From a virus: a DNA stretch of 64,000 nucleotides. Below the pieces are notes generated by a model. It made no database searches, was not told the DNA's origin, and saw nothing but the letters and a program-made list of their open reading frames with translations. The first letter of the stretch is position 1. The number at the start of each line of letters is the position of its first letter. Below are positions 1,582 to 27,153 of the stretch, one piece after another. A program made the position numbers and the translations under genes. The DNA is taken from the IMG/VR virus record IMGVR_UViG_3300034018_003010, one strand, 5' to 3'.

Positions 1582-4500
1582 ATGCTAGGCGAATACCCAC
1601 AAATATCATTTAGAGTTCGACCCAAGTTTGATAATTTATATAATTATCCATTACCTGGAACTGATAGGGACCTTTTATGGTATCAACTATCAAAAGCCAC
1701 GGTTTGGGTAGATTATGTACCTTATGCAATGAAACAAGGAGATGAGTTTTCTCTTTATGGATGGCAAGCAATAGATGTTTACACAAGATATATTCTCGAA
1801 ACTCCTTACAAAGATAGAATATTAGAATGGACTTATTTTGGAAACCCTGTAGATTTACCAACAACAGCAAGAATAATATCAGATTTGCCAGCTCCATTTT
1901 GGCTTGTAAATACTAATTACGATTATCAAATACCGATTTCTGGGGGAGCAGCGCCTCTAACATGGTCTATTGCATCTGGATTTCTTCCATATGGAATGTA
2001 TTTAGACGAAATAACAGGAACTATTTATGGAACTCCAGCAATTGCAGACATATATGCATTTACAATAAAGGTAAAAGACAGTTCTCGTCCTCCAGCAATA
2101 GACAGCAGACCGTATTTAATTAGTATTGCTTCTGGCATAATAACGCCAACAGTTTATGAATTTCAAACATCAAACACCACTGCTTCAATATCTGGTGGAA
2201 TTTTAGCAAAATCTACCGCTGGAGATATTGTTTCTTTTTCTCCATTATATTCCACAACAACTCCGTCATCTACAACTATTAATGTTGGCGGAGTGCCTGT
2301 TTTTACAGCAACACATGATGCTTCTTACAATGGAACAACATTTACATTTATTCATAATGGCGTGTCTTATACTGCGACATGGGGATCGACAAATAATTTC
2401 GGAATTGTAACAATTTTAAATACTGGAGTTCCACAATCTATACCAGGTGGAATAACAGCAACAGGAATTGCTACAAATACATTGGCATACAGTCCGACAA
2501 GTGCTACAACAGGCGTTTCTTCGTCTACAGATATAACTATTAATGGAATTCCAGTATTAAACTTAGCTCACGATGCTATTTATAATGGTCAAACACTTAC
2601 ATTTGACTATTTTGGAGTGAAATATACTGCTACATTTGGAACAACAAATAATTTCGTAGGTCCAAATTTAACATACACAATAGGAGCAACAGGAGTTGCA
2701 GAATCTGCTCCTGGTGGAATAACAGCAACTGGCATCGCCACAAATTCAATAACATACACGCCGACAGCATTAACAACAGGAACTCCTTCCAGCACAATTG
2801 TTAATGTAGATGGCGTAAATGTTTTAACTTTAGCTCACGATGCTGTTTATAATGGCCAAACATTTACATTTGACTATTTTGGAGCCACCTACACAGCAAC
2901 TTACGGAATAACAAATAATCTACCAGCCGCTCCTGTAACATATGTAATTCCAACAACTGGAGTTGCAGGATCTGCTCCTGGAAATATTACAGCGACTGGA
3001 ATTGCTACAAATTCTATTTCTTATACTCCAACAAATACAACTACTGGAACTCCTTCTACAACAACAGTAACAATAGGCGGAGCAACTGTTTTAACTTTGG
3101 CTACCGATGCTATTTATAATGGACAAACATTTACATTTGATTATTTTGGAACAACTTATACTGGCACATTTGGAACAACAAATAGCTATCCAACACCTGC
3201 TACAACTACAACAACACCAGTTGCTGCAACTGCTACAATTTCTGCCACTGGCGTTCCGCAAACAATTCCAGGAAATATTACAGCAACTGGAATAATTGGC
3301 AATACCCTTACATATGCTCCAAACACTACAGTAACAGGCGTTACATCCAATACAACTGTTGTAATTGGAACAACAACAGTATTAAGTCTTGCACATGATG
3401 CTATTTATAATGGACAAACATTTACATTTGACTATTTTGGAACAACTTATACTCCAACATTTGGAACAATTAATACATATTCTGCAATACCGACAACTAC
3501 AACTACAACAAGCACAACGTATTCTCCGCCTACAACAACTACAGCAAGTCCTGCTACTACAACAAGTACAACGACAGTTTCTCCAATAACAACAACTACA
3601 ACTACTACAATAGTTCCAACAACAACTACAACTACTACGATAGTTCCAACAACAACTACAACTACTACGATAGTTCCAACAACAACTACAACTACTACAA
3701 TAGTTCCAACAACAACTACAACTACTACAATAGTTCCAACAACAACAACTACAACTACTACAATAATTCCAACAACTACAACTACATCTACTACATCTAC
3801 TACATCTGCTCCTACAACAAGTACTACTACTACAAGCACTACATCTACTACTACATCTACTACCACAAGCACAACTACAAGTACCACAACTACAACAACA
3901 ACTACTACAACTACCACACCAATTCCTTTGTGTTTATCAGATACAGAATCAGTAGTAGTTCTTAATTTGTTTGGACAAAAAGTATACACATTCGGAGGAT
4001 TGCTTGGATTCTTTGGTGTAAACACTGGTGTATATGTATTTACAGATGTTCCATCAACAGAACCACTTGCCTTCTTAAATGCTTCTGTAGCAAATGCTTC
4101 CTACACAGGAACAGTATTGGAATCTGTTGCTGCAGGCCCTGATGGAAACGTTTACAACTTCTACTCTGGCACAGTTACTTTGACTGTCACAGGAACATTC
4201 AATAGATTAAGCTATGCATCTCTTTATGATGGATACATGGGCGGACAAGACAATATTACATTCACAACATATTGTGTTTCTCCAACCACCACAACCACAA
4301 CTACAACTACAACAACCACCACAACAACTACCACCACAACCACAACTACAACAACTACACCGGCTCCAACTACAACAACTACAAGTACAACAACCACTAC
4401 TTCTGCTCCAACTACAAGTACAACAACTACTACTTCTGCTCCAACTACAAGCACAACAACCACTAGTACAACTAGCACTACAAGCACAACAACAACAACT

Positions 4501-7500
4501 GAACCTCCGTTCTATATGTTTGCAACTGGTTTCAATGGTTATGGAACGCTTGCTCAAAGCAATACAACAAATTCAAATGCTCTTCTTTATATTCCATCAA
4601 ATGGAACAGGATGGGCAGATATTTCTCGTTCTCCAGTAGCAAAACACGCTGCTGGAATAGCAGTAGACGGATCTTTGTTTGTGTGGGGCGCTAATGCTTA
4701 TGGAAACATAGGAGATGGTTCTAAAACAGATGCTAGTTCTCCAGTTCAAACATTGGCTGCTGGAACCAACTGGTCTTCTGTTTCAACTGGACTTTGGTTA
4801 ACAGCAGCTATTAATTCTTCTGGAAACCTATGGGTTTGGGGCGCAAATGCTTATGGTCAACTTGGAAATTCATCAACAACAGATCTAAGTTCTCCAATAC
4901 AGCTTGGAACAGATACTACATGGGCAAATATATCTTGTGGATATCAGTTTATGTCTGCTGTAAAAACAGACGGCACACTATGGTCATGGGGTAGAAATCA
5001 ATATGGTCAGCTTGCAACAAATAGCATAACAGATGCTACCTCGCCAGTACAATCAGTCTCTGCATCTACTGACTGGTATGAAACATATGCTTCTAAAGAA
5101 TTCATAATTGGACTAAAGAAAGACGGAACACTTTGGGGTTGGGGAAGAAACTCATATGGACAGCTAGGAACTGGAAACAAACTACCAGTATCTTCGCCAG
5201 TTCAAATAGCAGCAGGATCGACATGGAGTTCGGTATCTGTTGAGTCTGCATCTGTTATAGCAGTAAGAAGCGATAACACATTATGGTCATGGGGAGATAA
5301 CTCTAGTGGTCAATTTGGTAATGGAAATAGAGTAAATGTAAGCTCTCCAATACAAATTGGAGTAGATACAAATTGGTATAGAGTTGGAACTTCTCAAAGC
5401 GCAGTATTTGCTGTAAAGAAGGATGGAACACTATGGTCTTGGGGCGGCAATGCTTCTGGCGAATTGGGCGATAAGACAAATATAAATAGAAGCAGTCCTG
5501 TTCAAATATGTGTATACAATATAGCAACAGAACTAGATTGGGCAAAAATTGGTTCTGCTCAATCCACAATGTATTTGTTGAAGGAAACGATGCCTGTTCC
5601 AACAACAACTACTACTACAACAACTACAACCACAACAACTACTACAACAACTACAACAACTCCTGCTCCGACAACTACCACAACTACTACCACAACAACC
5701 ACTACAACAACCACAACAACGAGCACTACAACAACCACAACTACAAGCACAACCACAACTACATCAACTACAACTCCTGCGCCTATGAATGGCGGAGCAT
5801 TGTGGACATGGGGTTCTGCTCAAAACGGATCTATGGGAGATGGAACAACAGTTCACAGAAGCTCTCCTGTTCAAATTGATGCAAATAAAGTATGGACATC
5901 TGTAATTCCAAGTTCCTCCAACTATAACCTAGGTGTAATAAAGAACAACTACACTCTATGGGTGTGGGGTAGAAACAGCTACGGACAACTAGGATTAAAT
6001 TCAATTGCTGACGCAACAACACCAACAGAAGTTGGCGGATTGTGGTCACAAGCAATGTTTGGATTTAACTTCATGTTAGGAATTAAACTAGATAGCACAT
6101 TGTGGGCATGGGGAGATAATCAATATGGAACAACTTGCACAAATGTTCCAACAAGCACCCCAATTCAAATAGGAACAGAAGCTGCATGGTCTAGCGTATC
6201 TGCTGGAGGAAGCCATGCTTGCGGAATTAAGTCCGATGGAACACTTTGGTCATGGGGCTTGAATGCATGGGGTCAATTAGGACTTGGAGTATTGGGAAGC
6301 AAGCAAAGCCCTGTCCAAGTTGGATCGAATACAACATGGTCTACAATTGCATGTAATCTAAACAACACATTTGCAATTAAGACAGATGGAACATTGTGGG
6401 CTTGGGGATGGAACCTAAATGGTGAATTAGGCTTAGGAGATGTAAAAGGAAAATCTTCGCCAACCCAAGTTGGAACAAATACCACATGGTCAAGCGTAAG
6501 AGCAGGAATATCTAACTCATTGCTAGCAGTAAAGAGCGATGGCACACTATGGGGCGCTGGCAGACTTTATACTAACAATTCTGTTATAAACAGAAGCAGT
6601 CCAGTTCAATTTGGAACAGATACAAATTGGTCTAAGGCAGTTTCTCTTGGAGATAACACAATAGGTGCTATTAAGAGTGATGCCACAATGTGGACATGGG
6701 GCGTAAATGATGATGGAGCAGTACTAGGAACAAACAATGTATTTGATACATCTTCTCCAGTTCAAACAGCCGCAACAAATTACACATGGCTTGATATAGA
6801 TGGATATCTATCTGTTGCTGCTATTTCTGATCTAGAAATAACCACAACAACTACAACAAGTACTACTACTACAAGTACTACAAGCACAACCTCTACAACC
6901 TCTACAACTTCTACAACCTCTACAACTTCTACCACACCTGTTCCTGCATACTTGTATACTACTGGCAATTTTGGAGGATCAGCTTTCCAAAATGATATAG
7001 TTCTTAGAAGCAGTCTAACACAAGTAACATTAGGATCAAATACATGGATTGCAACAGGAACAGGATATATTCAGGGGTGCATGTTCGCAATAGACACACT
7101 TAATAATTTATGGGCTGCTGGCTATAACACTGGATTTGGCAATGCAGGAAAACTTGGAGATGGAACAACCATTAATAGAAGCAGCCCTGTTCAAATTGCT
7201 GGTTCTTGGAACCAAGTATCTGCTAGTCAGAATTCTGCAAGTGCAATTAAAACAGATGGAACACTTTGGGTTTGGGGACAAAACTCTTATGGAACAATAG
7301 GAGATGGAACAAATGTTAATAGAAGCAGTCCTGTTCAAGTATACGGTGGCGGAACATGGACATCTGTGGCAACTGGCTATACAACAACATGGGCTATTAA
7401 GAATGATGGAACACTATGGGGATGGGGAGACAACGATAGCGGAACTCTTTTAAATAAGCCCAGCACACTTAGCCCTGTTCAGCTTGATACAGGATCGTGG

Positions 7501-10500: not shown

Positions 10501-10767
10501 GGTGCTTCCGGCGGCGATGCTACTGGCGGTGCTGGCGGTGGCTCAAGCTATTCTGTTGGAAGTGTCACATATGGTCCAGTAGCCAACACATTAGGAAACG
10601 GCAGCATAGTTATTACATACGGCTGCTCATACGCAGTCGGTCAAAATTTGTTGTGGGCATGGGGCGATAACTCTGGCGGAAATCTTGGAGCCGGAAGTGT
10701 ATCAAGCAAATCTTTGCCAATACCCGTTAAATACAACACAACTTGGTCAAATATAGGTGGTGCTTAA
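1582..10767 (+). CDS. Giant modular virion surface protein A, N-terminal part (shared N-domain, putative Ig, 5x ~85-aa repeat, cupredoxin-like domain, poly-Thr linkers, 4 RCC1 propellers, LamG, Gly-rich domain)
   Basis: RCC1 motifs KTDGTLWxWG/GQLG/RSSPVQ; Ig motif SGFLPYGMYLD..TGTIYGTP; LamG motifs SAWFK...WHH...LFIDG; Gly-rich domain FSYTGSLQTWTVPSG. The ORF ends in the middle of an RCC1 repeat. Confidence 0.85.
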   Translation: MLGEYPQISFRVRPKFDNLYNYPLPGTDRDLLWYQLSKATVWVDYVPYAMKQGDEFSLYGWQAIDVYTRYILETPYKDRILEWTYFGNPVDLPTTARIISDLPAPFWLVNTNYDYQIPISGGAAPLTWSIASGFLPYGMYLDEITGTIYGTPAIADIYAFTIKVKDSSRPPAIDSRPYLISIASGIITPTVYEFQTSNTTASISGGILAKSTAGDIVSFSPLYSTTTPSSTTINVGGVPVFTATHDASYNGTTFTFIHNGVSYTATWGSTNNFGIVTILNTGVPQSIPGGITATGIATNTLAYSPTSATTGVSSSTDITINGIPVLNLAHDAIYNGQTLTFDYFGVKYTATFGTTNNFVGPNLTYTIGATGVAESAPGGITATGIATNSITYTPTALTTGTPSSTIVNVDGVNVLTLAHDAVYNGQTFTFDYFGATYTATYGITNNLPAAPVTYVIPTTGVAGSAPGNITATGIATNSISYTPTNTTTGTPSTTTVTIGGATVLTLATDAIYNGQTFTFDYFGTTYTGTFGTTNSYPTPATTTTTPVAATATISATGVPQTIPGNITATGIIGNTLTYAPNTTVTGVTSNTTVVIGTTTVLSLAHDAIYNGQTFTFDYFGTTYTPTFGTINTYSAIPTTTTTTSTTYSPPTTTTASPATTTSTTTVSPITTTTTTTIVPTTTTTTTIVPTTTTTTTIVPTTTTTTTIVPTTTTTTTIVPTTTTTTTTIIPTTTTTSTTSTTSAPTTSTTTTSTTSTTTSTTTSTTTSTTTTTTTTTTTTPIPLCLSDTESVVVLNLFGQKVYTFGGLLGFFGVNTGVYVFTDVPSTEPLAFLNASVANASYTGTVLESVAAGPDGNVYNFYSGTVTLTVTGTFNRLSYASLYDGYMGGQDNITFTTYCVSPTTTTTTTTTTTTTTTTTTTTTTTTTPAPTTTTTSTTTTTSAPTTSTTTTTSAPTTSTTTTSTTSTTSTTTTTEPPFYMFATGFNGYGTLAQSNTTNSNALLYIPSNGTGWADISRSPVAKHAAGIAVDGSLFVWGANAYGNIGDGSKTDASSPVQTLAAGTNWSSVSTGLWLTAAINSSGNLWVWGANAYGQLGNSSTTDLSSPIQLGTDTTWANISCGYQFMSAVKTDGTLWSWGRNQYGQLATNSITDATSPVQSVSASTDWYETYASKEFIIGLKKDGTLWGWGRNSYGQLGTGNKLPVSSPVQIAAGSTWSSVSVESASVIAVRSDNTLWSWGDNSSGQFGNGNRVNVSSPIQIGVDTNWYRVGTSQSAVFAVKKDGTLWSWGGNASGELGDKTNINRSSPVQICVYNIATELDWAKIGSAQSTMYLLKETMPVPTTTTTTTTTTTTTTTTTTTTPAPTTTTTTTTTTTTTTTTTSTTTTTTTSTTTTTSTTTPAPMNGGALWTWGSAQNGSMGDGTTVHRSSPVQIDANKVWTSVIPSSSNYNLGVIKNNYTLWVWGRNSYGQLGLNSIADATTPTEVGGLWSQAMFGFNFMLGIKLDSTLWAWGDNQYGTTCTNVPTSTPIQIGTEAAWSSVSAGGSHACGIKSDGTLWSWGLNAWGQLGLGVLGSKQSPVQVGSNTTWSTIACNLNNTFAIKTDGTLWAWGWNLNGELGLGDVKGKSSPTQVGTNTTWSSVRAGISNSLLAVKSDGTLWGAGRLYTNNSVINRSSPVQFGTDTNWSKAVSLGDNTIGAIKSDATMWTWGVNDDGAVLGTNNVFDTSSPVQTAATNYTWLDIDGYLSVAAISDLEITTTTTTSTTTTSTTSTTSTTSTTSTTSTTSTTPVPAYLYTTGNFGGSAFQNDIVLRSSLTQVTLGSNTWIATGTGYIQGCMFAIDTLNNLWAAGYNTGFGNAGKLGDGTTINRSSPVQIAGSWNQVSASQNSASAIKTDGTLWVWGQNSYGTIGDGTNVNRSSPVQVYGGGTWTSVATGYTTTWAIKNDGTLWGWGDNDSGTLLNKPSTLSPVQLDTGSWKYIYAGRKFHFGIKQDGTLWGAGSNSNGQLGINNSFNTSTLTQISTGGTWVKVFGNYDSSIGLKTDGTIWAWGYNRVGVFGNNTEGQSVSSPVQSIGSGYVDMNGNYGGVAAIKSDGTLWAWGWNSEGPLADKTKVHRSSPVQVYKFGTSENSWVRLGSSINGVTAFSSIVLAPTTTTTTTTSTTTSTTTTSTTSTSTTSTTSTTPIPGELWLWGSNANGATLQNTTAGNSTSPKQEFTADITWKTPTVNSVLTLPIGACIKQDGTLWTWGRNDFYQLGTGNTINRSSPVQTAIGGTNWASIEFGSSAAFALKTDGTLWGWGSNGYSTLLQPSTLTNLSTPVQILSGTTWSQIACGLNFVLGIKPGNTLWGWGQNFYGQVGDGTEIDRSSPVQIAGSWSYVSCDSDSSLGIRTDGTLWGWGKNNPGKLGNMSEVNASSPVQVITGGTWKKAIVISEVAAGIKTDGTLWLWGQNFAGALGQNDKIHRSSPVQVITGGTWSDIGMGVSGSICGIKTDGTLWAWGWNSYGQIGDGTTVHRSSPVQTLTKDKLWMRLLNQTSTYAGAIRQYTPYALNYDVSTASVSNTTIADISGLENNGTMTSSAMFNLGCPNTLGFDSTREITTTISQNNPQVYTLSAWFKTTSASGKKIIGHENVQTGTGATSYSRHLYIGTNGQLYFATSANGAGYTITSSTIVCDGAWHHAVISAKSGAQRLFIDGVLVGSDTKSTANPVGDNNPTGWWRIGGYKITGWANASDGYFTGDIGRAVVYKNALTDLEITSLYAAELPLFNVAKFSYTGSLQTWTVPSGVYNIDATIIGAKGGDNTTGGSVGGGGAIMYTNIDVTPGQTLYLVVGGYPGTSETPAYGFGGAGQAPSSGLQRTGAAGGGLSGIFTSDSFIPSTVIAIAAGGGGANGRSSATGGGNGGNPTGSNGGEYNGSFGANAGWGANQSQPGNAGSQFDGYVTLPQQGAYLYGGAGSKFEGTGGGNQGAGGGAGYYGGGGGASGGDATGGAGGGSSYSVGSVTYGPVANTLGNGSIVITYGCSYAVGQNLLWAWGDNSGGNLGAGSVSSKSLPIPVKYNTTWSNIGGA
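3601..3750 (+). repeat. 30-bp tandem repeat x5 (actactacRatagttccaacaacaactaca) encoding TTTIVPTTTT
   Basis: Directly visible near-identical 30-nt units. Confidence 0.9.
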
Positions 10768-13700
10768 TATGTCAACACAGGCTTGTTCTTACGGAATAGA
10801 TTCTTCTGGTAATTTATTTTCATGGGGACCAAATGGCTACGGAACTATAGGCAATCAATCTGTTGTTACAAAAGCTATACCAACACCCACTTTAGGTACT
10901 GACTATTCATCTATTCTAACTTCATCTTTATCTGTATTTGCTCAAAAAACAGATGGAACAATTTGGTGTTGGGGCAAAAACACAAATGGACAGCTTGGAT
11001 TATCTAATGTTATACATAGGAGTAGCCCTGTATTTTTTTCTGCTTCTGGAGTATGGTCTAAAATAGAAAATGGATATAGTAATTCTCTTGGTATAAAAAC
11101 AGATGGAAGTCTTTGGGCATGGGGCAGAAATGATGCTGGGCAATTAGGAACAAATAATACAATCCACAGAAGCAGTCCTGTTCTAGTTTCAAATACAGGA
11201 ACATGGGTAGATGTGTCGTGTGACTATTACTCTTCATATGGAGTAAAAAGCGATGGAACACTTTGGGCATGGGGTACTGGATACAACTTTGCATGGGGAA
11301 ATGGGACAAATGTTGCCACAATAGTCCCCGGCAGAAGCTCAATGGTACAAATAGGAACCGCAACAGATTGGAGTAATGTTTCCACCGTATATGGGCTTGG
11401 TGGCATAGCTTTAAAGAAAGACGGAACTTTATGGAGTTGGGGTCAGGGTAGCGCAGGAAAAAATGGAAATAATTCTATGATGACAGCCAGCTCTCCAACC
11501 CAAGTTATTGGAAGTGGATATGCTTATGTAAAATCTTCTTGGTATACAGTATTAGCTAAAAAATCAGACAATACATATTGGATATGGGGACAAACATGGG
11601 ATGGCAGTTCTTCCACTTCAGTAAATAGAAGCAGCCCAGTACAAGTTGCAGGATCTAATTTCAGAAATTTAAGTTTTTCCAAACTTAATGTAGTTGGAAA
11701 TGGATGGCCAGCTTTTTATGGAATAGCTCCAGTTCCACCAATTGTAACAACAACATCTACAACAACAACATCTACAACAAGCACTACACCCGCAGCAGAA
11801 CAAGGCTTCTTAGTTTGGGGAAATAACACCGATGGTGTTTTGGGCATTGGAGATACAGTTCATAGAAGCAGAGGTGTTCAATTAGGAACAGATTCTCAAT
11901 GGAATTCTGGAAGAGTATTAAATTATTCAACATCTGGTAGCAACCATACATTAATTACTAAATGGGATGGAAGTCTTTGGGGTTGTGGAAATAATACATA
12001 TGGTCAAATTGGAGATGGAACTCTTGTTCATAGAAGCAGTCCTGTCCAAATTACTGGCGCATGGGCAAATGCTGTTTCAGGCGCTTTTTATACTGTTGGA
12101 GTCAAAACAGATGGAAGTATTTGGGCATGGGGAAGATCTATAGATGGATCTCTTGGAACTAATTTTGGGGCTGGAGATCAATACTATCCTTATAGAATTG
12201 GATTAGACTACACATGGTCAGGAAATCCTGCTCATTTAGATGCTTCAAGACATGTTGCAGCTATCAAAACTAATGGGACCCTATGGGCTTGGGGGTATAA
12301 CGGACTAGGACAATTAGGAAATGGAACAATAGCACACAGAAGTTCTCCAACGCAAATAGGAACAGAAACAACATGGGCTCAAGTTTCTGTTGGTGGGGCA
12401 GTAACTTCGCCATATCAATCTCATACTATTGCTGTTAAATCAGATGGAACTGCTTGGGCATGGGGTGCCAATTCAAGTGGTCAGCTAGGAAACAATTCTA
12501 TTATACATAGAAGTTCCCCTGTGCAAGTTTTAGGAACTGGCTACAAGTATGTAAAAGCAGGTTTTGGATTTTCTTTAGCTGTTAAAACAAATGGAAGTCT
12601 ATGGGGATGGGGGGACTACAACTATAGTGGAACCAATTATACGCCATTAAACTATGCAAATAGAAGTTCTCCGGTTCAATTGCTTGGAACTACTTCTTGG
12701 TCAACAAATCTCAGCGGATTTGATACTAAGTATATTTCAAGTGTTGGATTAAATAGCACCGGACCTCAAAACTTATGGAACTGGGGAAGTGGCACAGATG
12801 GTGCCCTTTATCAAATTTCTAATGTTGCCAACATATTTTCTCCTTTAGATTCTACATCATATCCATCTGGACTAAACCGGACTTGGAGTTCAGCCTATCA
12901 GGGCTATCAAAGAGGCGCAGCCGGGGCACTAGTATCTCTTAGTGCTTTTGGATTAATTGCTGATTGGGATCCAAGAAATTATGTTAGCGGAACCACTTGG
13001 ACAGATGCTTCTGGAACTGGAAATAATGCTACCATTTCTAATACAGACCTTCAAAATGGATTTGTTTTCAGGAATGAATATTCAGGATATTTTGCTGAAA
13101 CATCTACAGCCGGTTATTTATCAAACTCATTTCTTTATTACTATGGCACATATGGAGAGCCAATATACATAACCGGGACAAAGGCGTATTATTATAGCGA
13201 TGATGTAAGAGATCAATCTTTTGAAATTTGGGCAAGATTAAAGCCTTCAAATACTACCGAATCTATTGCTACCGTAGGACCATTTACGCTAAGACTAAAT
13301 TATGACCAACTAGTAGTTACATTAAATGGAACAACTATTATTACTCCAGCAAGTAAATATACCGACTGGATGTTCCATCAATTCACAGTCACAAATACTG
13401 GAACAACTACTAAACTTTATGTAGATGGATCTTTAGTTAGCACTGCTACAAATTCTGGCTTATATACTAGTGGAGGATATCTATCACTAGGAACAACTTC
13501 ATGCCATTTGGCGAAATTCAGAGCATGGTATGGAGTTGTAAGAACAGATGCCGAAATATTAGCTGATTATAATTCGTGGAAAGCAATAGCAAACTATCCT
13601 GTTTTAACCACAAGAAATACTTATAGCTATACTGGATCAGATCAAACATGGACATGCCCTGCTGGAGTAACAAGTATTTATGCTACTGCTATTGGAGCTA

Positions 13701-14524
13701 CGGGAGGAAGTCTAACTACTAGCCTTGGTACTAGTAGAGCTGGAAATGGAGGTTCAATAACAGGAAAACTAACAGTTACACCGGGTGTGACATATAGAAT
13801 TGTTGTTGGCAAATCAGGAGACTGGTCTTCTGGTTCGACTGCGCCATACGGATATGCCGGAAGTTTTTCTAATGCGGTAAATACAGGCATAACAGGATCT
13901 GTCGGAGCTTTTGGCGGAGGATTAGCAGGAATATTTGCAACTAGCGTTAGTCGAGCAAACGCTTTGTTAGTAGCTGGTGGTGGTGGTGGTGGACAAAGAC
14001 TGAATATTTATAACTGTTCAAGCCCTCTTGTTACTCAAAATTTCCAGGAAACAGGATGGGGGGCTGTAGGAAGTGGACCTGGAGGGTCTGGAAGAGCAGT
14101 AAATAATTATACTTCATGCGTAAACACAAGCACAAGAAATGGCGGAACTTTAACAGCTAACGGTGTAGGAACAGCTGGTATTATAGCTGGTGGTAGTGCT
14201 AGTGCTAGTGGATTGACAGGAGGAACAGGAATTGGATATTCCTCATATACTGATGGTTTGTCAGGAACTAATGTGCTATGGATGACGGGAGGAAGTGGTG
14301 GTGCTGGATATTATGGTGGAGCAGGTTCTACTTTAGTTTGTGCTAGTTATTATGATCCAGGTGGTTGTGGAGCCCCTCCTCCTTCCCGATGGGTTAGTGG
14401 CAGCGGCATCATTCCTTCTGGAGGAGGCTCAAGCTATTCCGCTGACGCTAATAGCGGACATGCATTCAGTAACAATGGCACCGCTCCTTGGGGATTTAAT
14501 GGATATGTTGTAATTTGTTACTAA
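10757..14524 (+). CDS. Continuation of giant protein A in the +1 frame (2 RCC1 propellers, LamG-like, Gly-rich domain); in-frame ATG at 10769
   Basis: It begins mid-RCC1 repeat (ACSYGIDSSGNLFSWG), completing the repeat that starts at the end of the upstream ORF, and it lacks the shared N-domain. Confidence 0.8.
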   Translation: MVLNMSTQACSYGIDSSGNLFSWGPNGYGTIGNQSVVTKAIPTPTLGTDYSSILTSSLSVFAQKTDGTIWCWGKNTNGQLGLSNVIHRSSPVFFSASGVWSKIENGYSNSLGIKTDGSLWAWGRNDAGQLGTNNTIHRSSPVLVSNTGTWVDVSCDYYSSYGVKSDGTLWAWGTGYNFAWGNGTNVATIVPGRSSMVQIGTATDWSNVSTVYGLGGIALKKDGTLWSWGQGSAGKNGNNSMMTASSPTQVIGSGYAYVKSSWYTVLAKKSDNTYWIWGQTWDGSSSTSVNRSSPVQVAGSNFRNLSFSKLNVVGNGWPAFYGIAPVPPIVTTTSTTTTSTTSTTPAAEQGFLVWGNNTDGVLGIGDTVHRSRGVQLGTDSQWNSGRVLNYSTSGSNHTLITKWDGSLWGCGNNTYGQIGDGTLVHRSSPVQITGAWANAVSGAFYTVGVKTDGSIWAWGRSIDGSLGTNFGAGDQYYPYRIGLDYTWSGNPAHLDASRHVAAIKTNGTLWAWGYNGLGQLGNGTIAHRSSPTQIGTETTWAQVSVGGAVTSPYQSHTIAVKSDGTAWAWGANSSGQLGNNSIIHRSSPVQVLGTGYKYVKAGFGFSLAVKTNGSLWGWGDYNYSGTNYTPLNYANRSSPVQLLGTTSWSTNLSGFDTKYISSVGLNSTGPQNLWNWGSGTDGALYQISNVANIFSPLDSTSYPSGLNRTWSSAYQGYQRGAAGALVSLSAFGLIADWDPRNYVSGTTWTDASGTGNNATISNTDLQNGFVFRNEYSGYFAETSTAGYLSNSFLYYYGTYGEPIYITGTKAYYYSDDVRDQSFEIWARLKPSNTTESIATVGPFTLRLNYDQLVVTLNGTTIITPASKYTDWMFHQFTVTNTGTTTKLYVDGSLVSTATNSGLYTSGGYLSLGTTSCHLAKFRAWYGVVRTDAEILADYNSWKAIANYPVLTTRNTYSYTGSDQTWTCPAGVTSIYATAIGATGGSLTTSLGTSRAGNGGSITGKLTVTPGVTYRIVVGKSGDWSSGSTAPYGYAGSFSNAVNTGITGSVGAFGGGLAGIFATSVSRANALLVAGGGGGGQRLNIYNCSSPLVTQNFQETGWGAVGSGPGGSGRAVNNYTSCVNTSTRNGGTLTANGVGTAGIIAGGSASASGLTGGTGIGYSSYTDGLSGTNVLWMTGGSGGAGYYGGAGSTLVCASYYDPGGCGAPPPSRWVSGSGIIPSGGGSSYSADANSGHAFSNNGTAPWGFNGYVVICY

Positions 14525-14550
14525 AAAATTAAAAATATTAATATTAATTT

Positions 14551-14580
14551 AATTCCCAGCCTAGGCTGGGAATTTTTTTT
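14551..14580 (+). terminator. Intrinsic terminator
   Basis: Perfect palindrome aattcccagcctaggctgggaatt followed by a T run, after stop 14524. Confidence 0.85.
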
Positions 14581-14588
14581 AAATGGCG

Positions 14589-14596
14589 AATAAATA
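14589..14596 (+). promoter_or_regulatory. Late-promoter-like motif AATAAATA
   Basis: Lies 6 nt before ATG 14603, just after a terminator; no SD. Confidence 0.6.
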
Positions 14597-14602
14597 CTTA
14601 TT

Positions 14603-17600
14603 ATGACAGGCGAATACCCACAAATCACATTCCGTGTAAAACCAGTTTTTACAAACCTTTATAACTATCCACTACCAGGGACTGATAGAGTTCAGACTTG
14701 GTATCAATTAGAAGATGGGGCAATTTGGGTTGATTATGTGCCTTATAGATTAAGAAGTGGAAATTCTTTTAATTTATATGGAGCACAAGCTTTAGATGTT
14801 TATACAAGATATATTTTAAAAACTATACCAGGCGATAGAATATTAGAATTTGATTATTTTGGAAAAGTAATAGATAATTCTTCAAATTTAGTAATTTTAA
14901 ATGATGTTTTGCCAACTGGAGCTGCATTTGTTCCATATAGTAAAATACTTCAAACACAAAATACAAGCCAACCTTTAGAATGGAAAATAACATCTGGAAA
15001 ACTTCCATTAGGAATGTATTTAGATTCTTCTACTGGAGAACTTTATGGAACCCCATTAGTATCTGGAATGTATCCATTTACAATAAGTCTGACAGATAGT
15101 TCTATTCCGCCAATTTATGATAGCAGGCCATATTTATTAAGAATTGCTTCAAGTTCAACAACAACAGTTCCTACACAAATACAGCAAAATGGAGTTCAAA
15201 CAGCACTTCCCGGCGGAGTTGTTGCTGTTGGATCTGCGGGAGATGTTTTAACCTATACAACAAATTATACTGTTGGAAACACGACTACAACAACAGTTAC
15301 TATTCTAGGAAATTTAGCATTAACTTTAACTCATTCTGATTCTTATAACGGACAAACATTTACATATGTTCACCAAGGAATAACATATATTGGTACATTT
15401 GGAGCCGCAAACGTATTTGGTGTTGTAACAACAACAACAACTCCTGCCCCAACAGTTTTTGTAATTACTTCTACTGGAACTCCTTTGAGTGCTCCAGGAA
15501 ATTTAACGGTTACAGGAATTGCAACAAATACTTTAACATATACAGCTATTAACACAACAACTGGATCTACATGCACAACAACAGCTTCAATTAGTGGAAT
15601 AAATGTTTTAACTATTTCTAATGATGTAATTTATAGCGGACAGCAGTTCTCATTTAACTATTTTGGAACAATTTATACTGGAACTTTTTGCATAAATAAT
15701 ACATTTTTACCAACTACAACAACTAGCACAACAACTCCAAATCCTTTATTTACAACAACCACCACAACAACTACTACAACTACTAGCACAACAACCACTA
15801 CTACTACAACCACAACTACTACTACTGCATCTCCAGCAACAACCACTAGCACAACCACTGCATCTCCAGTAACCACCACCACTACTACAACTATTGTTCC
15901 AGTAACTACAACTACAACTACTACAATAGTTCCAGTAACAACTACTACAACTACTACAACTATTGTTCCAGTAACTACAACAACAACCACCACAATAGTT
16001 CCAGTAACTACAACAACTAGCACAACTAGTGCTCCAACAACCAGTACAACTAGTGCTCCAACAACTACTACAACTATTGCCCCAACAACTACTACAACTA
16101 GTGCCCCAACAACCAGCACTACAACTAGCGCTCCAACAACCAGCACTACAACTAGCGCTCCAACAACAACCAGTAGCACAACTAGCACAACAACAACGCC
16201 AATTCCTTCATGCTTATCAAGTACTCAATCAGTAATAGTAATAAACTGGTCTGGACAAAACACATATGTATTTGGTGGCACAATTGGATTCTTTGGCGTA
16301 AATACTGGTGTTTATCAATTTACAAGCGTACCTTCTACACATCCAATAGCATTCTTAAACAACTCCATAGGAAATGTTTCTTACACAGGAACTGTTCTTG
16401 CAGGATCTGGAATAGCCCCAGATGGAAACACTTATAACTTCTACTCTGGAACTGTAACTTTAACTGTAACAGGTTCTTTTGGCAGATTAAGCTATGCTTG
16501 CTTGAATCACGGCTACATGGGTGGCCAAGACAATATAACATTCACAACATATTGTGTGTCTCCAACCACAACTACTACAACCACACCAGTTCCAACTACA
16601 ACCACTACTACAACTACGCCCTCACCTACTACCACAACAACCACCACAACAACCACAACAACCACCACAACAACACCCGCACCTACTACAACAACCACTA
16701 CAACCACAACTACTTCAACCACAACTACTTCAACCACCACCACGCCAGCACCTACCACAACAACCACTTCAACCACAACAACCACAACTACTACAACAAC
16801 ACCAGCTCCTACAACTACTAGTACAACCACTTCTACCACTACAACATCAGCACCTACTACCACAACCACAACTACAACCACTTCAACCACAACTACAACA
16901 ACCACTACAACAACACCAGCACCTACTACCACAACAACAACTACAACCACAACTACTACAACAACACCAGCACCTACTACCACAACAACTACTACAACAA
17001 CCACTACAACAACACCAGCACCTACTACCACAACTACTACTACAACTACCACGTCAACATCTACTACAACAACTACAACCGATGTACCTTCTGGATCTTT
17101 ATATTTAATGGGATTGAATGGAAGCGGTCAGATAGGAGATGGAACTGCTATAAGCAGAAGCATTCCGACTCAAGTGTTGGGTTCAGGAGCATGGAAAATA
17201 TTAGGAGATAATGGATATTCAACATCAGTATTTAATGCAGGCATTAAAAATGATAACACTTTGTGGTTATGGGGAAATGGCAATTACATAGCACAGAATT
17301 CAAATGTAGGCAATAAATCTTCTCCAGTTCAAATATATGGCGGAGGCACATGGACTGATGTCGCCCAAACATACCGTACCGGAGCGGCTGTAAAATCAGA
17401 TGGCACTTTATGGACATGGGGAGATAACTATTGGGGAGCTATAGGTCGCTATGGGCTAGCTTACAACAGCTTTATTTATTCGCCTGTACAAACAACTCTA
17501 GGCGGAAGCACATGGAGCAAAGTTGCTGGTGGATATGGTCAAGTATTTGCAATAAAAACTGATGGAACACTATGGGCTTGGGGCGCAAATGGAGGCGGAA

Positions 17601-20446
17601 CTCTTGGACTTGGATTTGTTGGCGGACAAGGATATGGAGGCATGTTTTCCCCAGTTCAAGTAGGAACAGATACAACATGGAAAATGGTTGGATCACTTTA
17701 TGCTGGTGGAATTGCAATCAAACAAGACAATACATTATGGATATGGGGAAATAATAACAATGGTCAGTTAGGACAAGGAAATATCATAAACAGAAGCTCG
17801 CCTGTTCAAGTTGGAACAGGAACAGATTGGGCTTTTGTCCCAAAAACAGCATCGGGAATAACTAGCTCTGCTTTTGCAATTAAAAATGATGGTTCTCTTT
17901 GGGGTTGGGGCGGAAACAACAGTGGGCAATTAGCTCAAAATAACACAGCAGATATAAGCTCTCCTGTTCAAATTACTGGTACATGGAGCAAAGTAACCTA
18001 CAACCGTTCTGTTATAGGACTAAAAACAGATGGAAGCTTATGGGCTTGGGGACATAACTCATATGGCACCATAGGAGATAACACAAAGATACATAGAAGC
18101 TCTCCAGTGCAAACAACTCTTGCAGATACAAACTGGATAAATGTTGTTGGATTTGGTGGAATTAGAGCTACAACCACATCTACTACAACTACATCTACTA
18201 CAAGTACATCTACAACATCCACTACATCAACAACACAGGCTCCTGGTGCGCTATATACATGGGGCTATAGACATCTTGGATCTTCAGGGGATAATAATAA
18301 CACTGTAATATATCAGTCTCCAACACAAATAATTGATGCAAGTCAATACCAAGATTTGCCACCTAACACGAGTGGATACGGATCATGTTTTGCCATAAAA
18401 CCAGATGGAACATTATGGGCTTGGGGATTGAACTCTTATTATGGAGCACTTGGAGATGGAACATTAGAAAATAGATCTTCACCTATTCAAATCACCTCAA
18501 ATACATGGAATATGGTATCTTCAAGTTCGCTTGCAACTCTTGCTATAAAATCTGATAATACATTGTGGGGATGGGGAGGCGGAGCATTCCTGCCCAACAA
18601 TTCTAATACTAGCTATAGCTCTCCCATACAAATTGGAACAGATACATGGAGATATGTTAATACTGGAGGACAAACCGGGGCAGGAATAAAAACAGATGGT
18701 ACTTTGTGGCTTTGGGGAGGCAATCAGAATGGACAACTTGGCAATAATCAGGTATCATATAATACGCAAAGTTCTCCAACACAAACAGTTGCTGGAGGAA
18801 ATAATTGGATTTTTGTTAATGTTAGTGGCGATGGGGTTGTTCATGCCATAAAATCTGATACAAATTTATGGGCTTGGGGGAATAATTCTTGGGGGCAAAT
18901 TGGAAACAATACTAGTTATGTAAGTTATTCAAGTCCTATACAAATAGGAGCATCTGGTTGGGCTTATGTAAGCTCAACCAAATATCATGTACTTGCTGTA
19001 AAAACCAATGGCACATTATGGGCATGGGGTTATAATGCCTATGGAATTTTAGGTTTAAATACAGATACTCCTTATTCAGGGGTTAGCTCTCCTATCCAAG
19101 TAGGAACAGACACAAATTGGAAAAAGTCTACTGCTCTAGACTATTCATCCGCAGCAACAAAAACGGATGGCACATTATGGGCATGGGGTTCAAATTATTA
19201 TAACCAAACTGGAAACCCATATGCAGGATACGCACTTTCATCTCCAATACAAACATTAGCAAATGATAATTTATGGATTGATATATCTGGTAATAGTTAT
19301 GGAGTTTATGCAACTAGAAGTGCTGGATATGTAGCTACTACACCTTCGCCTACGACTAGCACTACTACAACGACTCCACAACCAGGAAGTTTATTAGGAA
19401 TGGGAGTTAATTCTTATGGTCAAATTGGGAATAACACAACAAATTCACAATCTTTCCCAACACAAGAAATTACAAATTCATCATGGTCAAAATTACCAAG
19501 TGGCAGCTATCTTTATTCCGCTTATGTAGGCATGGGCGGAATAAAAACAGATGGCACTCTTTGGACATGGGGATATATTTGGGATTCTGGTTCTATTGTT
19601 CACAGGTCTTCTCCTGTACAAATAAGTACAGGTGGAACATGGACAGATTTTTCAATATCTGGTTATTCAGTTAATGCTGTTAAGTCTAATGGAACATTGT
19701 GGGCGTGGGGACAATTACCAGGAAACAGTAATAACTCTAGCCCAACACAAATTGGAACAGACACAGACTGGAAATATGTGTTTAGAAATTCATATGTTTC
19801 TGCTGCAATTAAAAATGATGATACTGCATATTTATGGGGATCCGATATATCTTATGGATTATTTGGTGACAATACAGCAACTAATTCATCTAAATTAATA
19901 CCGACACAAACAATAACTGGTTCTTGGAAGATGATTGTTGGTGGCAATGCTATGTTTGGAATAAAAACAGATGGAACATTATGGTCTTGGGGATACAATG
20001 CCTATGGACGACTTGGATTAAATGATACAATAAACAGAAGTTCTCCAACACAAATAAGCGGGTCTTATACATATGTTTCATCAGATGGATATAGTGTATA
20101 TATGGCTGTAAAATCTGATGGAACATTATGGGGATGGGGCAACGGACAATCTATAATAAATGCTATAGCTTTCAATGGTGGTTTCTATCAATATCAAGGT
20201 TATAGTTCTCCAATTCAACTATTTTCATCAACAGGATGGACCAAAGTACTTGGTTTTAATGATAGTTCAATTGCTTTGAAATCAGATGGAACAGCATGGA
20301 CATGGGGATATAATAGGTATGGACTGGCTGGAAATGGCAAGATAGTTCCATTCTACGCATCTACATATAGTCCTGTGCAGGTAAACTATACCGGCTGGTC
20401 AGATATTTACTCCAATAGAGATACAAACTTTGGATTGTTTAATTGA
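14603..20446 (+). CDS. Giant modular virion surface protein B (shared N-domain, Ig, 2x ~85-aa repeat, cupredoxin-like domain, poly-Thr linkers, 3 RCC1 propellers)
   Basis: Paralog of 1582: MTGEYPQITFRVKP vs MLGEYPQISFRVRP. It has RCC1 repeats and the STHP...YACLNHGYMGG motif. Confidence 0.85.
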   Translation: MTGEYPQITFRVKPVFTNLYNYPLPGTDRVQTWYQLEDGAIWVDYVPYRLRSGNSFNLYGAQALDVYTRYILKTIPGDRILEFDYFGKVIDNSSNLVILNDVLPTGAAFVPYSKILQTQNTSQPLEWKITSGKLPLGMYLDSSTGELYGTPLVSGMYPFTISLTDSSIPPIYDSRPYLLRIASSSTTTVPTQIQQNGVQTALPGGVVAVGSAGDVLTYTTNYTVGNTTTTTVTILGNLALTLTHSDSYNGQTFTYVHQGITYIGTFGAANVFGVVTTTTTPAPTVFVITSTGTPLSAPGNLTVTGIATNTLTYTAINTTTGSTCTTTASISGINVLTISNDVIYSGQQFSFNYFGTIYTGTFCINNTFLPTTTTSTTTPNPLFTTTTTTTTTTTSTTTTTTTTTTTTTASPATTTSTTTASPVTTTTTTTIVPVTTTTTTTIVPVTTTTTTTTIVPVTTTTTTTIVPVTTTTSTTSAPTTSTTSAPTTTTTIAPTTTTTSAPTTSTTTSAPTTSTTTSAPTTTSSTTSTTTTPIPSCLSSTQSVIVINWSGQNTYVFGGTIGFFGVNTGVYQFTSVPSTHPIAFLNNSIGNVSYTGTVLAGSGIAPDGNTYNFYSGTVTLTVTGSFGRLSYACLNHGYMGGQDNITFTTYCVSPTTTTTTTPVPTTTTTTTTPSPTTTTTTTTTTTTTTTTPAPTTTTTTTTTTSTTTTSTTTTPAPTTTTTSTTTTTTTTTTPAPTTTSTTTSTTTTSAPTTTTTTTTTSTTTTTTTTTTPAPTTTTTTTTTTTTTTPAPTTTTTTTTTTTTTPAPTTTTTTTTTTSTSTTTTTTDVPSGSLYLMGLNGSGQIGDGTAISRSIPTQVLGSGAWKILGDNGYSTSVFNAGIKNDNTLWLWGNGNYIAQNSNVGNKSSPVQIYGGGTWTDVAQTYRTGAAVKSDGTLWTWGDNYWGAIGRYGLAYNSFIYSPVQTTLGGSTWSKVAGGYGQVFAIKTDGTLWAWGANGGGTLGLGFVGGQGYGGMFSPVQVGTDTTWKMVGSLYAGGIAIKQDNTLWIWGNNNNGQLGQGNIINRSSPVQVGTGTDWAFVPKTASGITSSAFAIKNDGSLWGWGGNNSGQLAQNNTADISSPVQITGTWSKVTYNRSVIGLKTDGSLWAWGHNSYGTIGDNTKIHRSSPVQTTLADTNWINVVGFGGIRATTTSTTTTSTTSTSTTSTTSTTQAPGALYTWGYRHLGSSGDNNNTVIYQSPTQIIDASQYQDLPPNTSGYGSCFAIKPDGTLWAWGLNSYYGALGDGTLENRSSPIQITSNTWNMVSSSSLATLAIKSDNTLWGWGGGAFLPNNSNTSYSSPIQIGTDTWRYVNTGGQTGAGIKTDGTLWLWGGNQNGQLGNNQVSYNTQSSPTQTVAGGNNWIFVNVSGDGVVHAIKSDTNLWAWGNNSWGQIGNNTSYVSYSSPIQIGASGWAYVSSTKYHVLAVKTNGTLWAWGYNAYGILGLNTDTPYSGVSSPIQVGTDTNWKKSTALDYSSAATKTDGTLWAWGSNYYNQTGNPYAGYALSSPIQTLANDNLWIDISGNSYGVYATRSAGYVATTPSPTTSTTTTTPQPGSLLGMGVNSYGQIGNNTTNSQSFPTQEITNSSWSKLPSGSYLYSAYVGMGGIKTDGTLWTWGYIWDSGSIVHRSSPVQISTGGTWTDFSISGYSVNAVKSNGTLWAWGQLPGNSNNSSPTQIGTDTDWKYVFRNSYVSAAIKNDDTAYLWGSDISYGLFGDNTATNSSKLIPTQTITGSWKMIVGGNAMFGIKTDGTLWSWGYNAYGRLGLNDTINRSSPTQISGSYTYVSSDGYSVYMAVKSDGTLWGWGNGQSIINAIAFNGGFYQYQGYSSPIQLFSSTGWTKVLGFNDSSIALKSDGTAWTWGYNRYGLAGNGKIVPFYASTYSPVQVNYTGWSDIYSNRDTNFGLFN

Positions 20447-20491
20447 TATTAAACTAAAACTGAAGTCCGTTGTTTTCTTGGCTCAAGGATC
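20443..20491 (-). mobile_element. Degenerate copy of the ~50-bp IS200/IS605-end-like mini-element
   Basis: The reverse complement gatccttgagccaagaaaacaacggacttcagttttagtttaatatcaa keeps GATC, GAGCCAAGAA, GACTTCAG and the terminal TCAA of the copies at 46995 and 50457. Confidence 0.55.
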
Positions 20492-20498
20492 AAAATCT

Positions 20499-20533
20499 AA
20501 AAACCTCTAGAGATAGTTCTCTGGGGGTTTTTT
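20499..20533 (+). terminator. Intrinsic terminator
   Basis: Hairpin aaaaacctctagaga-tagt-tctctgggggttttt with a U-tract. Confidence 0.75.
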
Positions 20534-20553
20534 GCTTAAAGCATATATATTTT

Positions 20554-20826
20554 ATGTCAAATTCATATCCACAAATTACATTTTTAGTAGACCCAGATAT
20601 TTCTGAAATTGATTCTTATTCAATGCCAGATGTGAATAGAGAAAATCTTGTTTATCAATTAAATTCAAAGATATATTGGATTGAAAATTTTTCTTATAGT
20701 GTAAAAAAAGGAGATTCTTTTACATTGTATGGAGAAGAAGCACTAAGAGTTTATAAAAATTATATACAAAACAATACAAATGGAAATATTTTAAAAGTAA
20801 CATATTATGGTGTTCCAGAAATTTAA
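20554..20826 (+). CDS. Stand-alone 90-aa version of the shared N-terminal (putative virion-anchor/decoration) domain
   Basis: MSNSYPQITFLV...W...KGDSFTLYGEEALRVYKNYI...ILKVTYYG aligns with the N-termini of 1582, 14603 and 20894. The start is moved from the 20470 TTG to ATG 20554, which is preceded by CATATATA. Confidence 0.8.
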   Translation: MSNSYPQITFLVDPDISEIDSYSMPDVNRENLVYQLNSKIYWIENFSYSVKKGDSFTLYGEEALRVYKNYIQNNTNGNILKVTYYGVPEI

Positions 20827-20893
20827 AGTTCTAATCAGCTATTAATTAACTCAATCTTGTTAAAAATTTTACTTCTTGTCGATAAATAAAATT

Positions 20894-23800
20894 ATGGCAC
20901 AAGATTATCCACAAATAACATTCGTTGTAAACAATGTAAATATGCAGGAAATTTTAAAATATCCTCCTGTAGATCAAAATTATGACAATGTCATAAATCT
21001 ATTAAAACAAACTACATTTTGGATTTTATATGTTCCATATGAATTAAGACATGAAGATTGCTTTACACTTTATGGAAAAGAAGCTTTAGAAGTTCAAAAA
21101 ATTTATATAACAGACGTACAAGAAAACCTAAGAAAACTTGAAATAGGTTACTATGGCATACCAACAACTGATTGCACATGCAAATGCTTAATACAAACAG
21201 ATCCAGCAAGCATAAATATTCAGCAGGTTGGCACCTCTTTATCGGTAGCAATGTCAGCTACTGGTGGCAAATCTCCTTATACATATTCTCTTGATTCTGG
21301 AGTTTTTCCTCCTGGTGTAACCATTTCTTCAACTGGAGTTATAAGTGGAACACCGACTGCTTCAGGGTCTTACGAATTTTCTATTTTAGTAAGTGATGGA
21401 ATTAACAGCGCAATAAAAACTTATAGAATAAAAGTAAAACCTCTAATCGCATTTGCACCCGCATCATTGCCAGCAACAACTCAATCTATTGCTTATAATC
21501 AAACAGTTACAGCATCTGGCGGACTTGCTCCATATGCATACAGTATTATTTCAGGATCATTGCCAACTGGATTGAGTCTAAATTCAGCAACTGGAGCCAT
21601 TACTGGAACTCCTACAACTCCAGGAACTTATAATTTCACTATAGAAGCAACCGATGGAAACAGTGATATAGGTAGCAAAGCATATACAGTAACAATAAAT
21701 AATCCTGTATTAATATCTACAGCAACACTGCCAGACACAACGGAAGGGGAAGTATATAGCCAAACTGTTTCTTCAACAGGAGGAACAGGAGCTGTAACAT
21801 TCTCCGTTTCTTCTGGTTCTTTGCCAACAGGACTAAGCCTAAATGCTGCAACAGGAGTAATAAGCGGAACTGTTACTGTAGCCGGAACTTATAATTTCAC
21901 AATAACAGGAACTGATACAGTAGGAGCAACAGGAAACAAAGCCTACTCTGTTGTTATAAATCCACCAGTAGCGGTTACTCCCTCAACTTTACCAGACACA
22001 ACAATAACAATACCATATTCACAAACAGTAACTGCGACTGGCGGCACAGGCACAAAGACATATGCAGTAACATTTGGATCTTTACCAACAGGACTAAGCT
22101 TAAATACCGCTACCGGACTAGTAAGCGGAACTCCAATTACTGCAGGTCTTTACAATTTTGCCATAACAGCAACCGACACAGTAGGAGCAACGGGAAATAC
22201 TATTTATAATGTAAATATTAATCCTGCCATAACATTAGCTCCAGCAACTCTACCAGCAACAACAGAAAATGTAGCTTATAGCCAAACTGTCACAGCATCT
22301 AACGGAACTGGAACAAAGACATATACATTATCTTCTGGTTCTTTGCCAACAGGACTAAGCTTAAACGCCGCAACAGGTGTTATAAGTGGCACACCTACTG
22401 CTGCTGGAAGCTATACTTTTGATATAACAGCAACAGATACTGTGGGGGCAACAGGAACAATAACTTACACAACAACAATAAATGCAGCCATGACTATGGC
22501 TCCAGCTTCTTTGCCAACAACAACACAAGGAGTTGCTTATAACCAAACTGTTACAGCATCTAATGGCACAGGAGCAAAGACATATACTGTAACCTCTGGA
22601 AGCTTACCAACAGGACTAAGCCTAAATGCTTCAAGCGGTGCAATAACAGGAACTGCAACTGCTGCTGCTACTTACAACTTTACAATTACAGCCACAGATA
22701 CTGTAGGCGCAACTGTAAGTCAGCCATACACAGTATTAGTAAATGTTCCACTTTCAATATCTCCTGCAACTCTACCAGATACAACAATAAATGTTGCTTA
22801 CAGCCAAACAATAACAGGAACAGGTGGAACTGCTCCTCTTGCTTATTCAGTATCTGCTGGTTCTTTGCCAGCAGGATTAAGTATAAATGCCACAACGGGG
22901 GCAATAACTGGAACTCCAACTGCAACAGGCGCTTCGAGTTTCACAATTACTGTAACAGACGCAAATGGTGCGACAGCAAGCCAAGCATATACAGTAACAA
23001 TTAATGCTGCAGTTACAGTATCTCCAGCAACTCTACCAGATACAACAATAAATGTTGCATACAGTCAAACAGTATCCGCTTCTAATGGAACAGGAGCTAA
23101 GACATTCTCAGTAACTTCTGGTTCTCTACCAACAGGATTAAGCTTAAACGGTGCATCTGGTGTTATAAGTGGAACACCAACGGCTACAGGAACATCTAAT
23201 TTCACAATTACAGCTACAGATACAGTAGGAGCAACAGGAAGTCAAGCTTATACCGTTGTTATAAACCCAGCAGTTTCAATTACAACTGCAACTCTACCAG
23301 ATACAACAATAAATGTTGCTTACAACCAAACCGTTGCTGCAACAGGTGGTACAGGAGCAAAGACATTCTCAGTAACTTCTGGAAGCTTACCAACAGGATT
23401 AACCTTAACAGGCGCCTCTGGTGTTATAAGCGGAACTTCTACTGCTGCAGCAACATACAACTTCACAGTCACAGCTACCGATACAGTAGGAGCAACAGGA
23501 AGCCAAGCCTATAGCGTTGTTGTAAGCGGAGCTCTTTCAATATCTCCTGCAACATTACCAGACACAACAATAAATACTGCTTACAGTCAGACAATAACAG
23601 CATCAGGTGGAACAGCTCCTATTACTTATTCTGTTTCTGCTGGTTCATTGCCAACTGGCTTAAGCCTAGATGCCAATACTGGTGTAATAAGCGGAACTCC
23701 AACAAGTGCTGCGACATCAAACTTTACAATTACAGCTACAGATGCTTCTTTGGCAACAGCAAGCCAAGCTTACTCAGTCACAATAAACCCAGCTATTTCT

Positions 23801-27095: not shown

Positions 27096-27153
27096 TTTTT
27101 GCTCCTTTACTATAATCATTATAGCAACAAAAATATATTTTAAGGAAATAATT

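Follow-up and report, generated by a model that had tools for sequence, protein, structure and literature searches.

A shared N-terminal domain of about 90 residues on very long fibre-like proteins of an uncultured T4-like phage: a putative virion-attachment module of a new family

In a 64,000-nucleotide (nt) stretch of viral DNA (IMG/VR record IMGVR_UViG_3300034018_003010; hereafter the window, meaning the whole stretch that was analysed), four genes, which we call A, B, S and C and which start at positions 1582, 14603, 20554 and 20894, encode proteins that begin with the same domain of about 90 amino acids (aa), hereafter the N-domain. Three of them continue into different cargo, and gene S consists of the N-domain and nothing else. 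The structural and replication genes of the window identify it as part of a T4-like myovirus genome. We propose, with a probability of about 0.55, that the N-domain is an undescribed virion-attachment (adaptor) module of a new family which serves exchangeable fibres, because its payloads are of the adhesin type, a conserved head precedes a variable distal part, the domain appears viable without cargo, late-promoter-like boxes stand before its genes and structural genes lie in its neighbourhood.

The N-domain is well delimited within the window. Indeed, a profile made from an alignment of 34 family members and scanned over six frames detected it in exactly these four open reading frames (ORFs), with E-values from 1e-31 to 1e-40, the next match being at E 0.3. 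The alignment of the four copies has 22 invariant columns, the others being 33-59% identical to the 1582 copy, and BLASTP aligned residues 1-89 of the 90-aa protein of gene S with the 3061-aa protein of gene A at 39% identity (E 2e-18). The family has nearly invariant positions at P6, F10, V12, G53-D54, F56, L58, G60 and A63, and the profile scores place the window copies within it. Translations, alignment, BLASTP and the six-frame scan thus confirm the shared N-terminus reported in the initial annotation of this DNA; the four genes, described there as adjacent, are clustered, but a gene for an RCC1 protein without N-domain, A2, intervenes (Table 1).

The cargo was also correctly described, since Pfam finds RCC1/RLD propellers in genes A and B (in gene A, WD40_RLD over 7 stretches and RCC1 over 19, with a weak Laminin_G_2 match), 13 He_PIG immunoglobulin (Ig)-like repeats in gene C (E 1.1e-167 over 13 stretches, with a further match to phrog_8763, 'tail protein', at E 3.9e-11) and none in gene S. 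The three cargo genes share a head composed of the N-domain and one He_PIG Ig domain, with similarity until about residue 168, and the cargo contains long poly-Thr tracts. The pattern ATAAATA-N3-9-ATG has six matches in the window, three of which are at the starts of genes A, B and C. A late-promoter-like motif for each gene, as first claimed, therefore holds for these three (1569, 14590 and 20882) and not for gene S, upstream of which only CATATATA stands in place of the box. No Shine-Dalgarno sequence is visible at 1569-1584, 14590-14605 or 20882-20896, and since the boxes lie 5-6 nt from the ATG, the mRNAs of genes A, B and C would have little or no leader should transcription begin in the way it does at T4 late promoters.

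On a larger scale, 1.84 billion protein representatives were searched exhaustively with HMMER, in line with a suggestion of the initial annotation to search metagenome proteins; 80 of them matched at E <= 1e-3, all metagenomic, and the N-domain was found at 23 metagenome loci (numbers with L denote loci and those with P family proteins). Across the family, the cargo domains are He_PIG, RCC1, LamG, DUF5122 propeller, cadherin, PKD and BNR/GH43-like, and the LamG payloads have matches in PHROGs that bear the names baseplate wedge or virion structural protein, and in a gene of cyanophage Syn1 with the latter annotation. This variety bears out an autonomous module with interchangeable adhesin-type payloads. 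Note that P0133 matches a 735-kb phage and, in cyanophages, 'virion structural proteins', but with its LamG cargo only, the N-domain lying outside the match, so that this lead was set aside. The N-domain genes often form clusters of two to four, ranging between lineages from one to four per 20 kb. In the orthologs of L009, L008, L013 and L007, for which protein lengths vary, the N-domains are 100/95/88% identical versus 78/71/68% for the following 235 aa.

The N-terminal placement stands for the four window genes and not for the whole family, since in other lineages a domain of ~190 or ~250 aa precedes the N-domain. The former (residues 1-~190) occurs in P0037, P0038, P0056, P0063 and P0089 and the latter (residues 1-~250) in P0042, P0088, P0080, P0061, P0045 and P0043; they represent two more families without assignment, in other phage lineages. 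The ~250-aa domain looks like cargo too, judging by its sequence matches, because it is shared with cellular proteins that bear dockerin, TSP3 or DUF1573 domains.

The closest relative, G001, is a metagenome-assembled genome labelled 'uncultured Acidimicrobiaceae bacterium' in GTDB (CAYVOK01), with phage contigs C1 (271 kb; L036) and C5 (136 kb; L035) that are collinear with the window. The sheath encoded on C1 is 81% identical to the window sheath, C5 bears a gp23-like capsid gene (31781-32992), and the N-domain cluster, with the gene order of the window, is divided between the ends of C5 and C1. Because these ends fit inside the N-domain cluster, a T4-like phage of ~400 kb was probably binned here as a bacterium. 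A second, distinct T4-like phage contig (C57) is found in the same bin.

All four classes, A, B, S and C, are retained in the window and in G001. Between the window and G001, the N-domain identity of orthologs is 88% for A, 78% for B, 61% for S and 80% for C, whereas between classes it is 36-39%, except for A and B (68%). The heads are therefore not interchangeable copies of one plug, and the idea of interchangeable heads for one socket did not survive this comparison. Downstream of the N-domain, identity is 75-71% in gene A and 46-60% in gene B. The N-domain was better conserved than the payload in two of the three ortholog sets, and a conserved N-terminus with exchanged distal parts was found for genes A and B and the L009 group, and not for gene C. 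Where present, this gradient resembles that of fibre anchors.

The comparison also concerns the break between gene A and the 1255-aa gene A2, which looks, from the sequence, like a genuine translationally coupled pair and not a sequencing frameshift, because junction and layout are conserved in relatives. Indeed, the junction in the window (10720-10800) is AGGTGG ... TAA-N-ATG, and that in G001 (L035 4110-4190) is AGGTGGTG, then TAA, one base and ATG in the +1 frame. The A2 ortholog in G001 is 73% identical, and the two-gene layout recurs in L009 and L013 in different frames.

Gene S was seen in the initial annotation as a cargo-free filler that sets fibre density. Its 90-aa orthologs are 82-96% identical, with a dN/dS of 0.20 relative to the L001 copy, i.e., under purifying selection, and bare N-domain genes of 85-99 aa are present in five lineages (window, L001, L005, L016, L017/L018, L020). 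The recurrence of bare copies supports that the N-domain can be viable without payload. However, the filler proposal is weakened by the positional ortholog in G001, which has 329 aa comprising the N-domain, a He_PIG Ig domain, a poly-Thr tract and an end domain of ~95 aa. Since this S-class gene carries cargo, the window gene is a cargo slot reduced to zero and not a universal filler. An ancient dedicated filler gene was likewise dropped, because the stand-alone copies do not form one clade in the N-domain tree. Note that L012, L014 and L022 hold ORFs of 104-122 aa whose N-domains are nearly the same as in the RCC1 genes (459-464 aa) of L015, L016 and L020; these may be truncated alleles or assembly breaks, not true stand-alone genes.

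The N-domain had not been recognised at first, and it matched nothing in Pfam, PHROGs, PDB sequences, PDB and BFVD folds or T4 Hoc. In Pfam and PHROGs scans of the five cluster genes no family covered it, so that no known non-structural family was matched either, and the 90-aa protein had no match at E <= 0.01. IMG/VR scans with the N-domain alignment and with a single protein gave no relatives, a PDB sequence profile search gave a chance-level best E of 0.19, an ESM Atlas search gave scores of 0.83-0.84, under the useful range, cluster look-ups yielded no informative name, and hhalign of the family alignment against T4 Hoc gave a probability of 0.7%. Two AlphaFold2 models, one for the 90-aa protein and one for the 1582 head (pLDDT 75 and 78), share the same compact alpha+beta topology with four to six strands plus helices; the predicted order is beta1, two short helices, a beta-hairpin bearing the K-x-G-D-x-F-T-L-Y-G-x-x-A motif, a long helix and a last strand. 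With these two models, Foldseek found no match at E <= 0.001 in PDB and BFVD (none under E 0.08), and VIA-align against 48,161 chains reached best Z values of 4.5 and 4.4, the best row being a major vault protein repeat (Z 4.5, 51 residues aligned). No capsid protein was above noise in these fold searches, and the T7 gp17-N, T4 gp10-like and tailspike protein (TSP) XD anchors were not among the best 50 of the 48,161 chains at this model quality. YqbF, lambda gpFI-C and a jumbo-phage capsid chain gave weak rows that lay within noise and were not used. No relative of the modelled fold was found in these searches, and models of pLDDT 75-78 do not allow a novel fold to be claimed.

Several known systems share part of this organisation. 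The T7 gp17 N-terminus, the Ackermannviridae TSP anchors and the T4 gp10-like branching domains are conserved N-terminal anchors of trimeric fibres with known folds. As in our genes, several receptor-binding proteins per genome carry a conserved N-terminal module with exchanged distal parts, but the N-domain genes show no trimer sign and the anchor folds were not recovered in our searches. Such systems are not known to include genes for the anchor alone. T4 Soc (~80 aa) is close in size to the gene S product, comes from a T4-like phage and accepts fusions; in contrast, the 90-aa protein has no match to Pfam Soc (PF16855), and Soc structures were not among the fold matches. T5 pb10 has a small N-terminal capsid binder (residues 1-77) made of five helices, directly before an Ig-like domain on a flexible link, and this binder tolerates large fused payloads, much as in the N-domain cargo genes (PMC5292684). 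However, the N-domain is predicted to be alpha+beta and has no sequence or fold match to pb10, capsid binding is a feature of pb10, and pb10 is a single 164-aa gene versus a four-paralog family with kilodalton-to-megadalton cargo. T4 Hoc, also from a T4-like phage, is a monomeric Ig string with variable exposed domains on one conserved virion-binding domain (PMC10385173), but this domain is C-terminal and unrelated according to hhalign and Pfam/PHROGs, and G001 gave no Hoc relative with T4 Hoc as query. Tail fibres, tailspikes, Hoc and pb10 thus already exemplify attachment heads with swapped distal parts; the new elements are the domain family, the fact that it is restricted to large uncultured phages, its division into four classes and its recurrent cargo-free genes.

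As an attachment module, the N-domain would tie a flexible beads-on-a-string fibre, by one of its ends, to some conserved component of the virion in a very large T4-like myovirus. The fibres would probably be monomeric, with poly-Thr linkers between their Ig, RCC1 propeller, LamG and similar domains, and the payload behind the N-domain would be swapped, lengthened, shortened or lost by recombination. Since four distinct classes are retained, they probably address different or quasi-equivalent positions, or share one complex, and do not compete for one socket. Regarding the site, the capsid surface and the neck, tail or baseplate are about equally likely, neither of them holding as much as half of the probability, and the remainder goes to readings without an anchor. 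In T4, genes 9-12 and wac lie near gene 13, and the N-domain cluster is in the corresponding place; it adjoins neck and tail genes, and in G001 some 87 kb separate it from the major capsid gene. Together with the huge protein size, which argues for a low copy number, this position points to the neck, tail or baseplate.

The capsid form of the attachment module, in which the N-domain would bind capsomers of the major capsid protein in the manner of Hoc or pb10, with the cargo-free 90-aa protein occupying the remaining sites and so determining fibre density, is the most tenable of the alternatives, although we consider it unlikely. By analogy, its succession of binder, Ig domain and flexible string is that of pb10 (PMC5292684) and mirrors T4 Hoc (PMC10385173). 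Moreover, the fibres look monomeric, with poly-Thr-linked propellers or Ig domains and neither coiled coil nor triple helix following the N-domain, a bare binding domain is conceivable as decoration, and the G001 contigs gave no Hoc relative with T4 Hoc as query and no Soc in a search without positive control. In contrast, the pb10 binder is all-helical (PMC5292684), the Hoc comparison by hhalign was negative and capsid proteins stayed within noise in the fold searches. In addition, the cargo of the G001 S-class gene means that a dedicated filler is not conserved, the divergence between classes other than A and B argues against one common socket, hundreds of copies of 3061-aa proteins would approach the mass of the shell, and the cluster lies beside neck and tail genes, far from the capsid gene.

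A bolder version, for which we see a slim chance, would make the N-domain a new-fold, monomeric, high-affinity docking tag whose four classes occupy distinct quasi-equivalent capsid or sheath sites of a phage of at least 400 kb and which, with the glycosyltransferases of the neighbourhood, would build a programmable glycosylated fibre coat. If true, this would be a natural multi-address display system, each site class having its own exchangeable payload or none. Alternatively, and improbably, the N-domains could bind each other as a hetero-oligomeric hub in which fibres A, B, S and C are held together and which is attached to the particle via another protein. Such a hub would fit the conservation of four separate classes in one cluster in the window and in G001, and the rule of two to four N-domain genes per cluster in relatives, with a bare member that could complete the ring; however, the copy number per cluster varies from one to four within 20 kb and the stand-alone class is not monophyletic.

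The genes around the cluster suggest another role, in which the N-domain is a leader-peptide-like recognition handle by which glycosyl- or methyl-transferases or a chaperone select Thr-rich fibres. Indeed, a GT2 glycosyltransferase outside the domain family is conserved beside N-domain genes each time, at 94% identity in G001 and 70-72% in L016, L018 and L020, and further glycosyl-, methyl- and carbamoyl-transferase (NodU-type) and 2OG-oxygenase-like genes are near N-domain genes in three lineages. Together with the long poly-Thr tracts, these neighbours are compatible with fibre glycosylation. However, the lineages sharing GT2 are related phages, so that its linkage may be plain synteny, and the bare 90-aa copy, although under purifying selection, has nothing to modify; we find this handle hard to credit. 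The targeting signals known in T4 are short peptides that are cleaved off and not folded 90-aa domains, which counts against a location off the virion surface. Such a location, whether the proteins were targeted to the prohead and remained internal or were ejected, or were non-structural and released at lysis, is the least credible of all. In its favour, RCC1-like proteins of jumbo phage phAPEC6 have been speculated to organise DNA within the head (PMC7247149), and the N-termini of the four proteins show no evident signal peptide; against it, Ig, LamG, cadherin, PKD and lectin-type payloads with mucin-like linkers are typical of exposed adhesins.

Several observations weigh against the attachment module and keep its probability near 0.55. 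The family is known from metagenome sequences alone, from which we infer its association with the virion, and tblastn with the 90-aa protein and P0020 against 50,697 phage records returned no match. No tie of the N-domain to known anchors, in sequence or in fold, emerged from the searches above. In gene C, the N-domain is 80% identical between window and G001 versus 84-89% for the cargo, and in two sub-lineages the N-domain is internal, after the ~190-aa or ~250-aa domain and before LamG. Finally, the glycosyl-, methyl- and carbamoyl-transferase neighbourhood also fits a role in enzyme recognition.

Table 1. Positions of the N-domain copies, their genes and neighbouring features (window coordinates unless a locus is named; HMM, hidden Markov model)
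Feature	Position	Strand	Details
N-domain copy A	1582..1851	+	residues 1-90 of 3061-aa gene; HMM E 1.2e-34
N-domain copy B	14603..14872	+	residues 1-90 of 1947-aa gene; HMM E 1.9e-31
Gene S, stand-alone N-domain, 90 aa	20554..20826	+	HMM E 2.4e-40
N-domain copy C	20894..21166	+	residues 1-91 of 1524-aa gene; HMM E 4.9e-39
Gene A, 3061 aa	1582..10767	+	N-domain, He_PIG Ig, beta-rich repeats, RCC1/RLD propellers, LamG-like region
Gene A2, RCC1 protein without N-domain	10769..14524	+	Pfam; apparently translationally coupled to gene A
Gene B, 1947 aa	14603..20446	+	N-domain, He_PIG Ig, repeats, RCC1/RLD propellers (Pfam)
Gene C, 1524 aa	20894..25468	+	N-domain and 13 He_PIG Ig-like repeats
ATAAATA late-promoter-like box, gene A	1569..1575	+	6 nt upstream of ATG
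ATAAATA boxes, genes B and C	14590-14596 and 20882-20888	+	5-6 nt upstream of ATG
Terminator-like hairpin with T-run	14551..14574	+	between genes A2 and B; 10-pair stem, 5 GC pairs
GT2 glycosyltransferase	26217..27119	minus	Pfam Glycos_transf_2, 34.7 bits, above cut-off
Transferase regions around N-domain genes	window 26217-29498 and 1-1542; L016 5320-7665 and 16301-16975; L023 14645-18911
Large HNH homing-endonuclease gene	29538-31295	minus	phrog_3339, E 1e-112
gp13-like neck adaptor gene	31380-32264	minus
gp15-like sheath stabiliser gene	40294-41292
Tail sheath gene	41511-43988
Tail tube gene	44008-44673
Baseplate hub protein gene	48418-49536
CTP synthase gene	52609-54255	minus	Pfam CTP_synth_N and GATase

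Regarding the phage itself, no close relative of the window was found among the 50,697 phage records, the sheath being less than 60% identical to every one of them, and blastn with the N-domain locus gave no match in the same records. Two proteins of 964 aa (32309-35203) and 763 aa (36579-38870) among the structural genes are unassigned. Besides the structural genes of Table 1, the window encodes a ribonucleotide reductase, an SbcCD-like nuclease, a Dda-like helicase and a CTP synthase. The nearest match of the latter in the phage records is in LR756511.1, a 595-kb uncultured phage (69% identity); this huge phage was considered as a carrier of the N-domain and rejected, as it contains no credible N-domain. 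Note that the HNH homing-endonuclease gene separates the transferase genes from the neck gene (gp13-like).

Phages diversify their binding through common attachment heads combined with exchangeable distal parts. The N-domain would add to these an undescribed head, confined to uncultured, very large freshwater phages and borne by propeller and Ig fibres of unusual length. Identifying its partner on the particle would explain how giant phages carry many different fibres and provide a handle for annotating N-domain genes in metagenomes, and it could yield a small natural tag for fusions displayed on phages.

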